Below, one piece after another: positions 24,478 through 25,500 of a stretch of DNA of 64,000 nt. The notes under the pieces were generated by a model. It did not search any database and was not told the origin of the DNA. It saw only the letters and a list, made by a program, of their open reading frames with translations. Source of the DNA: Escherichia phage anhysbys; the sequence record NC_052656.1; one strand, given 5' to 3'. Position numbers and translations under genes: made by a program. Within the stretch, counting starts at the first letter, position 1. Every line of letters starts with the position of its first letter.

Positions 24478-24749
24478 CCAACACAACATTAAGGGCACTG
24501 TGATTGATCGTCGTATCCTGTGCACAAGGTCTGTTCGAAAGACAGTGTTCTTAGTATTGTGTTGATCACACAAAGAGTCACCTGAAACTTGACCGGAGTA
24601 GGGTTGGATGGGGCAAAAGAAGAAGCGGCTCTCCCATCGACAGCAACGAAGAATAATATTTGACTTTGGTTTTGTATTATTTTAAGTTAGCTTACCGAAC
24701 GTAGGGCTAGTCACCCAATGGGATACTCGTCACTGTCCCACTCAATAAA

Positions 24750-24783
24750 ACTATTGACAACCAATAGTAAAATGTAGTATAGT
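24750..24783 (+). promoter_or_regulatory. promoter with conserved ACTATTGACAA -35 element
   Basis: TTGACA at 24754-24759, TATAGT 18 nt downstream; precedes tRNA-Gly. Confidence 0.55.
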
Positions 24784-24794
24784 AAAGATGTAGG

Positions 24795-24865
24795 GCGTTC
24801 TTGGTGTAGCGGTAGCATTCCGTCCTTCCAAGTCGGCGGCACGAGTTCGATCCTCGTAGAACGCT
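24795..24865 (+). tRNA. tRNA-Gly (anticodon TCC)
   Basis: acceptor GCGTTCT/AGAACGC, anticodon loop CTTCCAA, discriminator T, T-arm ACGAG-TTCGATC-CTCGT, CCA. Confidence 0.75.
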
Positions 24866-24966
24866 CCAAATTATTTAATAAAGGGTTGCCAGAAAACTTT
24901 CTCTTTTACTCATGGTTTTCTCCTTCTCTCACACCTCTTCTGGTTGCCCTTCATTAAATGATTTAT

Positions 24967-25039
24967 TGGTTTGTAGTGTAGTCCGGTAGCACACGACACT
25001 TTGACTGTCGTAGGTTTGGTTCAAATCCAGACAGACCAG
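24967..25039 (+). tRNA. tRNA-Gln (anticodon TTG)
   Basis: acceptor TGGTTTG/CAGACCA, anticodon arm CGACA-CTTTGAC-TGTCG, T-loop TTCAAAT, discriminator G, CCA. Confidence 0.8.
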
Positions 25040-25047
25040 CCATATAA

Positions 25048-25121
25048 CGGAATTTAGCTCAGTTTGGTAGAGCATACGCTTTGGGAGCGTAGGGTCGCAG
25101 GTTCGAATCCTGCAATTCCGA
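25048..25121 (+). tRNA. tRNA-Pro (anticodon TGG)
   Basis: acceptor CGGAATT/AATTCCG, D-arm GCTCAGTTTGGTAGAGC, anticodon loop TTTGGGA, T-arm GCAGG-TTCGAAT-CCTGC, CCA. Confidence 0.85.
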
Positions 25122-25130
25122 CCAATCAAA

Positions 25131-25201
25131 TGTTTCGTAGTTCAATGGTAGAACCCACGACTGATAATCGTGAGACACAAGTTCGATTCTTGTCGAAACA
25201 A
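25131..25201 (+). tRNA. tRNA-Ile (anticodon GAT)
   Basis: acceptor TGTTTCG/CGAAACA, anticodon arm CACGA-CTGATAA-TCGTG, T-arm ACAAG-TTCGATT-CTTGT, CCA. Confidence 0.8.
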
Positions 25202-25206
25202 CCAGT

Positions 25207-25276
25207 TTCCCGTTAGACTTACAGGATAAGAGTTCCACAACTTATTGTGATGCTGGTTCGAATCCAGCACGGGATA
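25207..25276 (+). ncRNA. tRNA-like element with 4-nt anticodon-position loop (pseudo-tRNA or structured RNA)
   Basis: perfect T-arm GCTGG-TTCGAAT-CCAGC and 6/7 acceptor pairing, but anticodon-position hairpin is CACAA-CTTA-TTGTG (tetraloop); no encoded CCA. Confidence 0.25.
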
Positions 25277-25282
25277 CATAAT

Positions 25283-25358
25283 AGCGGGATAGAGGAGTCT
25301 GGTCGTCCTCGCCAGTTTCATATGCTGGAGATCATCGGTTCAAATCCGATTCCCGCCT
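25283..25358 (+). tRNA. tRNA-Met (anticodon CAT), second copy; could be initiator or Ile2 type
   Basis: acceptor AGCGGGA/TCCCGCC with A1-C72 mismatch, D-arm GAGG...CCTC, anticodon loop TTCATAT, T-arm ATCGG-TTCAAAT-CCGAT, CCA. Confidence 0.7.
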
Positions 25359-25476
25359 CCAAATATCGCTTGCCAGCGGTATCTTTGAAGACCTTGCCTG
25401 GTTCCTTCTAAGATGGAGGGGTGCGACTCCTTAACGCACAATTATAATAAAGCATTTCAAATTAACAGTATTTATT

Positions 25477-25500
25477 AGCCTCCTTATTGGAGGCTTTTTG
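25477..25500 (+). terminator. intrinsic terminator after tRNA array
   Basis: AGCCTCC-TTATT-GGAGGCT hairpin followed by TTTTT. Confidence 0.7.

Follow-up and report, generated by a model that had tools for sequence, protein, structure and literature searches.

Two putative structured RNA modules within the tRNA array of Escherichia phage anhysbys

Background

The tRNA arrays of phages are at present taken to consist of tRNAs alone and to serve codon supply or anti-defence. The species 1 and species 2 RNAs of T4 are co-transcribed with the tRNAs and excised from the precursor, and their function is still unknown. GOLLD and ROOL are phage-borne non-coding RNAs which are often found near tRNA genes. 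The hexamer of the HIV-1 DIS kissing loop is GCGCGC or GUGCAC. Theta ribozymes are minimal double pseudoknots from phages which apparently infect Bacteroidota and Bacillota (PMC10879173), and another report (PMC12286853) describes the assembly of GOLLD and ROOL into homo-oligomeric complexes.

Based on comparative folding, we propose that an interval in the tRNA array of Escherichia phage anhysbys consists of two conserved, folded, non-coding RNA modules which are read on the tRNA strand. While small RNAs in phage tRNA operons are already known, both modules represent new RNA families, absent from Rfam. Rfam/Infernal scans (Rfam 15, 4227 models, gathering and E-value thresholds) of the window and 13 related loci showed no family overlapping either module. 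A full-text literature search with conserved 13- and 15-mers returned no paper, and literature searches covering the tRNAs of Phapecoctavirus, phage tRNA arrays, P1 and RNase III brought up nothing relevant to either module.

The tRNA array and its promoters

The window, that is the whole 64,000-nucleotide stretch of DNA analyzed (NC_052656.1), carries the tRNA array of a Phapecoctavirus (phAPEC8-like, Stephanstirmvirinae). The features framing the interval are:

23439-25361, + strand: tRNA array (ARAGORN and Rfam)
23786-23815, + strand: sigma-70-like promoter, TTGACA-18-TAGATT, heading the first tRNA sub-array (promoter scan)
24406-24480, + strand: tRNA-Thr(UGU), with encoded CCA at 24478-24480 (ARAGORN, Rfam)
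24477-24566, + strand: Module 1, predicted rod plus three-way apical domain, about 88 nt (covariance model R1, 92.7 bits, E 5e-23)
24567-24745, + strand: Module 2, predicted multi-helix RNA, about 180 nt (homologues in 14 lineages)
24754-24783, + strand: sigma-70-like promoter, TTGACA-18-TATAGT, 11/12 matches, of the second sub-array, before tRNA-Gly
25477-25495, + strand: intrinsic-terminator-like hairpin and T-run at the end of the whole array

The promoter at 24754-24783 bounds the two-module region on its 3' side. On the + strand no terminator-like site was identified by a promoter/terminator scan from the 23786 promoter to 24754. Because there is no terminator between tRNA-Thr and the 24754 promoter, the simplest reading is that transcription from 23786 continues through the interval, and the 23786 promoter is the probable source of a transcript crossing both modules. 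A look-alike, TTGACT-17-TAAGTT, located within the P4 hairpin of Module 2, failed the promoter scan.

Additional tRNA-like elements were observed in the array. A tRNA at 24136-24220 was detected by Rfam (39 bits), missed by ARAGORN, and is tRNA-Tyr in the annotation of relatives. The long-arm tRNA at 23824-23910 reached 37 bits with the tRNA-Sec model, for which the gathering score is 47; PsgM04F and phiWec188 have the corresponding gene annotated as tRNA-Ser, and the "tRNA-Pseudo-TGA" feature of Klebsiella phage KP2025 gave a similar sub-threshold tRNA-Sec match. Two elements called by neither ARAGORN nor Rfam, at 24316-24405 and 25205-25282, are tRNA-like, with a 6-7-bp acceptor stem, a T-arm (GCAGG.../CCTGC and GCTGG-TTCGAAT-CCAGC) and aberrant D/anticodon regions. 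This E. coli-type Phapecoctavirus array is also matched by database entries which name Pseudomonas, Acinetobacter or Campylobacter as the phage host, PsgM04F among them with 84% over the two-module region; such host labels look doubtful.

Conservation and division of the interval

The segment 24481-24794 is 95-99.7% identical to some 60 Phapecoctavirus genomes, and almost none of these records annotates a feature there. Conservation of the interval is far above chance expectation, reaching about 98% identity even where the flanking tRNA-Thr genes of two genomes represent clearly distinct alleles. Two parts of approximately 160 nt (24478-24640) and 50 nt (24695-24745) are nearly invariant even across differing tRNA-Thr alleles; the segment 24642-24692 is swapped for unrelated hairpins among relatives. 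Citrobacter phage Tr1 and Klebsiella phage KP2025 possess only the second half, directly after the CCA of tRNA-Thr, and in a 46-kb Klebsiella siphophage the first 85 nt occur alone, upstream of the tRNAs of that phage; therefore, the interval is considered to be two independent units. Both are very probably functional structured RNAs.

The initial annotation had described 24481-24750 as a structure-rich spacer between tRNA-Thr and the next promoter, lacking a cloverleaf or an ORF with an RBS, and had proposed either a small RNA or a remnant of lost tRNA genes. It is borne out in part. The flanking features are those given above and the interval lacks a cloverleaf, none being found by ARAGORN or, even at E<=10, by the Rfam tRNA model; the real unit begins at 24477-24479, over the CCA of tRNA-Thr, and stops near 24745. 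The last bases of tRNA-Thr, C24479 and A24480, also open the 5' strand of the Module 1 rod. The interval is non-coding, although its ATG ORF (24608-24685) does have GGAG 9 nt upstream. The small-RNA proposal can be sharpened to two independent, covariation-supported modules on the tRNA strand. The remnant proposal is not supported: at E<=10 the interval gave no match to the tRNA model in the window or in eight relatives, and by synteny the relatives carry at this site the same non-tRNA modules, with the same folds, or other rod inserts, rather than ordinary tRNAs. The outcome which the initial annotation had named as refuting, ordinary tRNA genes at this position in related phages, was thus not observed.

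Module 1

The predicted parts of Module 1 are:

24479-24501, + strand: rod 5' strand, consisting of P1 CAACACAA (24479-24486), C24487 and ATTAAGGGCACTGT (24488-24501)
24502-24541, + strand: apical domain, with the near-invariant strands GATTGATCGTCGT and TCTGYTCGAA
24517-24529, + strand: apical hairpin CCT/AGG with the 7-nt loop GTGCACA (middle pair covaries)
24542-24564, + strand: rod 3' strand, consisting of ACAGTGTTCTTAGT (24542-24555), A24556 and TTGTGTTG (24557-24564)

The minimum free energy (MFE) of Module 1 was -33.2 kcal/mol (z -4.81, 0/200 shuffles), and its single-sequence MFE fold is the comparative structure. The helix of the rod is kept across all lineages; its 22 bp with one mismatch (C24487 opposite A24556) correspond to the geometry of an RNase III substrate, about two helical turns (at least 20 bp) of mostly Watson-Crick double-stranded RNA in which an internal loop is allowed. 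Among 20 distinct sequences 83.8% of the cells were paired compared with 71.8% after shuffling (0/500), and the covariation score was 0.337 versus 0.136 (0/500), shuffle statistics which overstate independence, many of the sequences being close relatives. Slid controls paired in only 35-49% of cells, and double-sided changes were recorded at twelve pairs. The covariation signal holds even though, for sequences of the prophage type, MAFFT aligned the outer helix in the wrong register.

Within the apical domain a 3-bp helix (TCG 24508-10 / CGA 24536-38) is predicted, which is invariant and hence gives no covariation signal. The middle pair of the apical stem is C-G, A-U or U-A depending on the lineage. 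The loop hexamer at 24520-24525 (GUGCAC) is self-complementary, and the homologues carry GGGCCC, GUGCAC or GCGCGC, with the exception of two of the 20 sequences, in which it is the non-palindromic GUGCCC. Positions 2 and 5 of the hexamer covary (GC in 7 sequences, UA in 6, CG in 5, other in 2), and the loop sequence is 96.7% complementary compared with 81.4% in shuffles. Since they are too close together for pairing within the loop, either a kissing duplex or a DNA palindrome is indicated; a self-complementary loop kept by covariation is what a kissing loop would present.

Distribution and paralogs of Module 1

The distribution given here is based on phage, IMG/VR and E. coli collections, a scan of GTDB having yielded one species representative (Citrobacter braakii). 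Pattern scans located Module 1 in 53 IMG/VR contigs, mostly of temperate-phage size, and in 132 E. coli genomes, including prophages and phage-plasmids of about 110 kb, in which it is situated inside a tRNA array. It occurs with compensatory changes in lambdoid prophages, a Klebsiella siphophage and SSU5-like phage-plasmids; the copy of a lambdoid Klebsiella phage has Q and four tRNAs on one side and the holin (lysis) gene on the other. Covariance model R1 found no second copy in the window.

With the same model, four rod elements were identified around the tRNAs of P1, having the same basal stem and other tips, some of which are T-arm-like (GGGTTCGAATCCC, GGGTTCATATCCC). In P1 (L109, AF234172; 261-1289) the rods flank tRNA-Asn and tRNA-Thr and share their strand. 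Two CDSs annotated in P1, plp and upl, run antisense over rod elements and are possibly mis-annotated, and a sub-threshold STnc100 match follows the rods (L109 1281-1400). Weak DicF-like matches were also seen near Module 1 copies.

A 186-nt insert between tRNA-Thr and Module 1 is present in PsgM04F (L002 1315-1500), SF1-1 and phiWec188. In PsgM04F the first 94 nt or so of this insert are a diverged Module 1 paralog (R1, 27 bits), and in two further loci (L072, L054) the slot after tRNA-Thr is taken by a third insert of rod-like form. Immediately before Module 1, the E. coli phage-plasmid pDETEC87 (L052 3866-3998) has a 133-nt "tRNA-OTHER" which, read by hand, is a tRNA with an insert of about 58 nt in the anticodon region. 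Two additional small hairpin modules (GUGAAUGCGCAGGCUGAUGCGC, GCCGGAGAUCAGCACCGGC) follow Module 1 in temperate phages (L012 6110-6200, L008 1585-1705, L052 4085-4220); they recur alone in well over 100 of the 239 phage records with any match to this region, and some 500 genomes of E. coli have them too.

Module 2

Homologues of Module 2, which range from about 140 to 225 nt, were retrieved from IMG/VR and metagenomes using degenerate patterns. The predicted parts in the window are:

24584-24601, + strand: conserved single-stranded 5' block, GAAAC (24584-88), TGAC (24590-93) and AGTAG (24597-601)
24607-24638, + strand: P2, GATGGGG (24607-13) / TCCCATC (24632-38), enclosing P3 (covariation)
24642-24692, + strand: P4, a hypervariable, swappable hairpin (per-lineage folds)
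24695-24703, + strand: invariant joining strand CCGAACGTA
24704-24716, + strand: Pk hairpin, GGG/CCC with loop CTAGTCA (covaries among lineages)
24720-24739, + strand: P5 hairpin, GGGA/TCCC with the conserved 12-nt loop TACTCGTCACTG

These parts suggest a compact junction RNA composed of P2[P3], P4, Pk and P5 with invariant joining strands. The MFE folds of the central segment, run independently, gave the P2[P3]-P4 layout in 14/14 lineages. Per-sequence folds revealed seven distinct complementary stems for P2 across lineages, versions including GAUGGGG/UCCCAUC, GAUGGAA/UUCCAUC, GAUUGG/CCAAUC, GGUUGG/CCAACC, GACAAGA/UCUUGUC and GUCAGG/CCUGAY; P2 also encloses an optional insert hairpin. P3 is weak in the window, with only 2-3 bp and the conserved loop GAAGCGG (24622-28), which is GANCGG across lineages, and double-sided changes occur at 5/5 of its pairs. 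The sequence of P4 is unrelated between close relatives and is a hairpin every time. Pk is GGG/CCC, GGA/UCC, GAG/YUC or GC/GC by lineage, with one A.C exception and the loop YUWGUCA, and P5 changes from GGGA/UCCC to GAGA/UCUC in three lineages, 100% of its cells being paired.

Only P3 and P5 were scored for pairing because P2, Pk and part of P3 are in inconsistent registers in the MAFFT alignments (A2, A4, A5); for P2 and Pk the pairing was taken from folds of the single sequences and from anchored segments. In alignment A4, P3 and P5 together had 96.8% of cells paired compared with 79.9% after shuffling and at most 59.5% when slid, and the covariation score was 0.536 versus 0.194 (0/500). No variation, and hence no covariation, exists in the strands GAAAC, UGAC, AGUAG and CCGRACGUA or in the loop UAYNCGUCACUG; consequently the interactions of the core, in which GAAAC/TGAC/AGUAG and CCGAACGUA are the strands of interest, cannot be inferred from covariation. 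A candidate TGAC/GTCA pseudoknot and an AGUA/GAA loop-E reading likewise involve invariant bases which carry no covariation signal. Taken alone, the window copy has ordinary stability (z -0.43), and the MFE fold of the whole copy differs from the comparative fold. A leader/tail helix closing Module 2 is suggestive in Tr1, KP2025, L062 and L071 but not significant. HDV-like, hammerhead and hairpin-ribozyme motifs threaded by hand onto Module 2 were not conserved and were dropped; a hammerhead-like CUGAUGA...GAAA occurs in L062 only.

Of the three hairpins proposed initially, GATGGG...CCCATC is real and covaries, being P2. CTGT-TCGAAAG-ACAG overlaps the 3' strand of the covariation-supported long helix of Module 1, and a T to C change in relatives breaks it. 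CCCA-AT-GGG is impossible, since its CCC pairs with GGG at 24704-24706 and its GGG belongs to the GGGA/TCCC hairpin at 24720-24739.

In all 14 lineages Module 2 is located within a large phage tRNA array, mostly between tRNA-Thr(UGU) and tRNA-Gly(UCC), and among isolates it is restricted to Stephanstirmvirinae-like phages. In nine lineages, the window not being one of them, it stands directly after the tRNA CCA (CCA followed by GA..). What comes next varies: a promoter and tRNA-Gly in the window, KP2025, L054, L072 and L078; a tRNA directly in L071; a homologous 108-aa ORF with a strong SD, 22-24 nt past P5, in Tr1, L056 and L073; and an unrelated 64-aa ORF at the same spacing in L062. The 108-aa product (L009 1572-1898, L056, L073) bears the motif HxxHCSCYGLEDQWEPE; it had no Pfam match, and no homologue was found anywhere in the window. 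Downstream of Module 2 in a metagenomic phage tRNA array (L075 1904-1952) there is a sub-threshold match to hammerhead type III (32.4 bits, E 0.002), and the KP2025 array (L053 194-446) gave two YrlA (Y RNA-like) matches of 40 and 34 bits.

Other spacers of the array

The initial annotation regarded such a spacer as unusual in so tightly packed a genome; for this array that does not hold, its other inter-tRNA spacers being long-stem structures too. The spacer after tRNA-Gly (24869-24966) forms a 23-bp rod (z -5.68), kept in seven relatives with 8 compensatory pairs, which closes a conserved pyrimidine-rich loop, UUUCUCUUUU..CUCAUGGUUUUCUCCUUC, with an anti-Shine-Dalgarno-like CUCCUU. In the spacer between tRNA-Ser and tRNA-Tyr (24006-24135) an 11-bp closing stem surrounds three hairpins (z -4.07). 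Both spacers would fit the same layout of a long stem plus cargo.

Alternative explanations

Some deposited annotations place small protein-coding genes, on either strand, in the interval; short hypothetical CDSs are recorded in WPEC1 and PsgM04F, and the GGAG ahead of ORF 24608-24685 would agree with this. However, that ORF, the only one starting with ATG, is ended by an in-frame TAA two codons after its start in relatives of PsgM04F type, the variants of Module 1 differ by two single-base indels in otherwise invariant sequence, P4 is replaced wholesale between relatives, more than 60 related records leave the interval blank, and the short ORFs showed no conservation of reading frame when compared among relatives, so a coding function is scarcely credible. 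Decay of lost tRNA genes is a very improbable origin of the modules and is largely refuted. It would account for the position inside a tRNA array, for the T-arm-like tips of some P1 rod paralogs and for the genuine tRNA-like leftovers elsewhere in the array (24316-24405, 25205-25282), but within 24481-24794 neither RF00005 (E<=10; gathering score 29 bits) nor ARAGORN (tRNA/tmRNA) found a match, the relatives carry the same non-tRNA folds in place of tRNAs, and purifying selection acts on helices which are not those of a cloverleaf. The arms of the Module 1 rod might instead be terminal inverted repeats of a small mobile or recombination DNA element (MITE-like, or integron attC-like with ..AAC / GTT.. 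termini around a variable centre), the loop hexamer being a palindromic protein-binding site, and this we consider unlikely. The rod CAYAAC-AGGT-AAGRRCAYT ... GTTGTG does flank different tips in P1, the PsgM04F insert and the window, the spread over unrelated phages is mosaic, differing inserts share the slot after tRNA-Thr, and GGGCCC, GTGCAC and GCGCGC are DNA palindromes. On the other hand, cells of G.U type outnumber those of A.C type by 27 to 4 and Module 1 is on the tRNA strand in 14/14 loci with tRNAs nearby, and this excess and shared strand both point to an RNA read on the + strand. Moreover, the 40-nt tip is nearly invariant between virulent and temperate phages, neither a transposase nor an integron integrase was seen beside the copies examined, and Module 2 would be left unexplained.

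Module 2 could in principle be a 5' leader, riboswitch-like or protein-binding, which controls the next gene, as the 108-aa ORF with its strong SD in three lineages and the unrelated 64-aa ORF at a matching distance in L062 would suggest. Module 2 is kept, however, whatever stands downstream, including the promoter and tRNA-Gly of five lineages and the tRNA of L071, and the 108-aa ORF is without a homologue in the window; a leader is improbable. We judge it quite unlikely that Module 2 is a self-cleaving ribozyme or other cis device which makes the 3' end of the upstream tRNA in the manner of theta ribozymes. Its start exactly past CCA in 9/14 lineages, its long invariant unpaired strands, as in ribozyme cores, and the precedent of tRNA-adjacent theta ribozymes in phages (PMC10879173) are in its favour; yet models of HDV-like, hammerhead, hatchet, twister and pistol ribozymes had no match at E<=10 in the window and eight relatives, the helix order, by hand, does not thread onto a nested double pseudoknot, and Module 2 is not beside a tRNA in the window, L054 and L072. 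In an HDV/theta test by hand, which sought the nested double pseudoknot (P1, P1.1, P2, P3, P4) with a catalytic C in J4/2, the first 7 nt after CCA had no complement in Tr1 or L062 at the internal site where this fold demands one. The combined proposal that Module 2 is a new class of catalytic RNA cutting after the tRNA CCA, and that Module 1 rods are horizontally exchanged cassettes with a type-A tip homodimerising through its loop, is likewise quite unlikely; if true, Module 2 would be the enterobacterial-phage counterpart of theta ribozymes.

Proposed processing and significance

The reading which we favour, with some reservation, is that of two unrelated RNA modules which are co-transcribed with the tRNAs and freed from the precursor by host RNases. 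Transcription of both modules together with the tRNAs would start at the 23786 promoter and encounter no terminator before 25477, and cleavage of this polycistronic precursor by host RNases would release both modules as small, stable RNAs. In Module 1 the rod would be the processing part, judged by its geometry an RNase III-type stem, and the three-way tip the functional cargo, the self-complementary loop of which may allow two copies to kiss. Because Module 2 normally begins exactly at the 3' end of tRNA-Thr, its 5' end would be set by tRNA 3' maturation. Both products may then act as stable small RNAs comparable to the T4 species 1 and 2 RNAs, candidate roles being those of a decoy, a regulator or a processing scaffold. 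These specific steps of processing and dimerization are put forward tentatively, as a model.

The present data indicate that the "spacers" of tRNA arrays are conserved RNAs in their own right and under selection, both here and in many other phages, among them P1, lambdoid prophages, SSU5-like phage-plasmids and large virulent myoviruses. At least two families are involved, and genome records now leave them blank or cover them with dubious small CDSs, so that annotation could be improved, for example in the plp/upl region of P1. The modules provide defined targets for studying the processing of polycistronic phage tRNA precursors and are candidate phage small RNAs acting on the host, and the self-complementary loop of Module 1 is a simple handle for experiment.

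Comparison with known systems

Searches of the T4 tRNA locus using nhmmer (both alignments, E<=10) and cmsearch with R1 found nothing. Words shared with T4 rnaC (GAGTAG, TTGAC, GGAACGT) were unsupported by nhmmer and were set aside. The T4 species 1 and 2 RNAs (rnaC and rnaD, "small, stable RNA" in the T4 record) resemble the modules in being small non-tRNA RNAs which lie in a tRNA cluster, on the tRNA strand and abutting a tRNA; rnaC has a T-arm/acceptor-like 3' domain which is absent from Modules 1 and 2.

GOLLD and ROOL are many times larger, and no Rfam match to them was found here. Like theta ribozymes, Module 2 is a structured non-tRNA RNA which, in nine of its 14 lineages, stands close to the 3' end of a phage tRNA, the distance in theta ribozymes being a few nucleotides; Module 2, at about 140-225 nt, has another helix order and no match to HDV models. 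The kissing loops of HIV-1 DIS and phi29 pRNA share with Module 1 a short hairpin with a self-complementary hexamer followed by A, a structural analogy only, with the dimer of Module 1 being putative. Integron attC sites and MITEs share with it imperfect inverted repeats, ..AAC / GTT.. ends, extrahelical bases and mosaic spread; in contrast to these, Module 1 is co-oriented with tRNAs, has an excess of G.U-type cells and a conserved centre, and has neither integrase nor transposase near the copies examined.

In the RNase III stems of the rRNA operon, T7 early RNA and dicF, as in Module 1, a rod flanks cargo within a polycistronic transcript. The Module 1 rod of about 22 bp with one mismatch/bulge and the 23-bp rods of neighbouring spacers are similar to such stems, a likeness which derives from predicted geometry, and the conservation of sequence in the Module 1 rod exceeds the requirements of RNase III. 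Based on these comparisons, the closest analogy appears to be a functional one, to the stable small RNAs of phage tRNA operons combined with RNase III processing stems.
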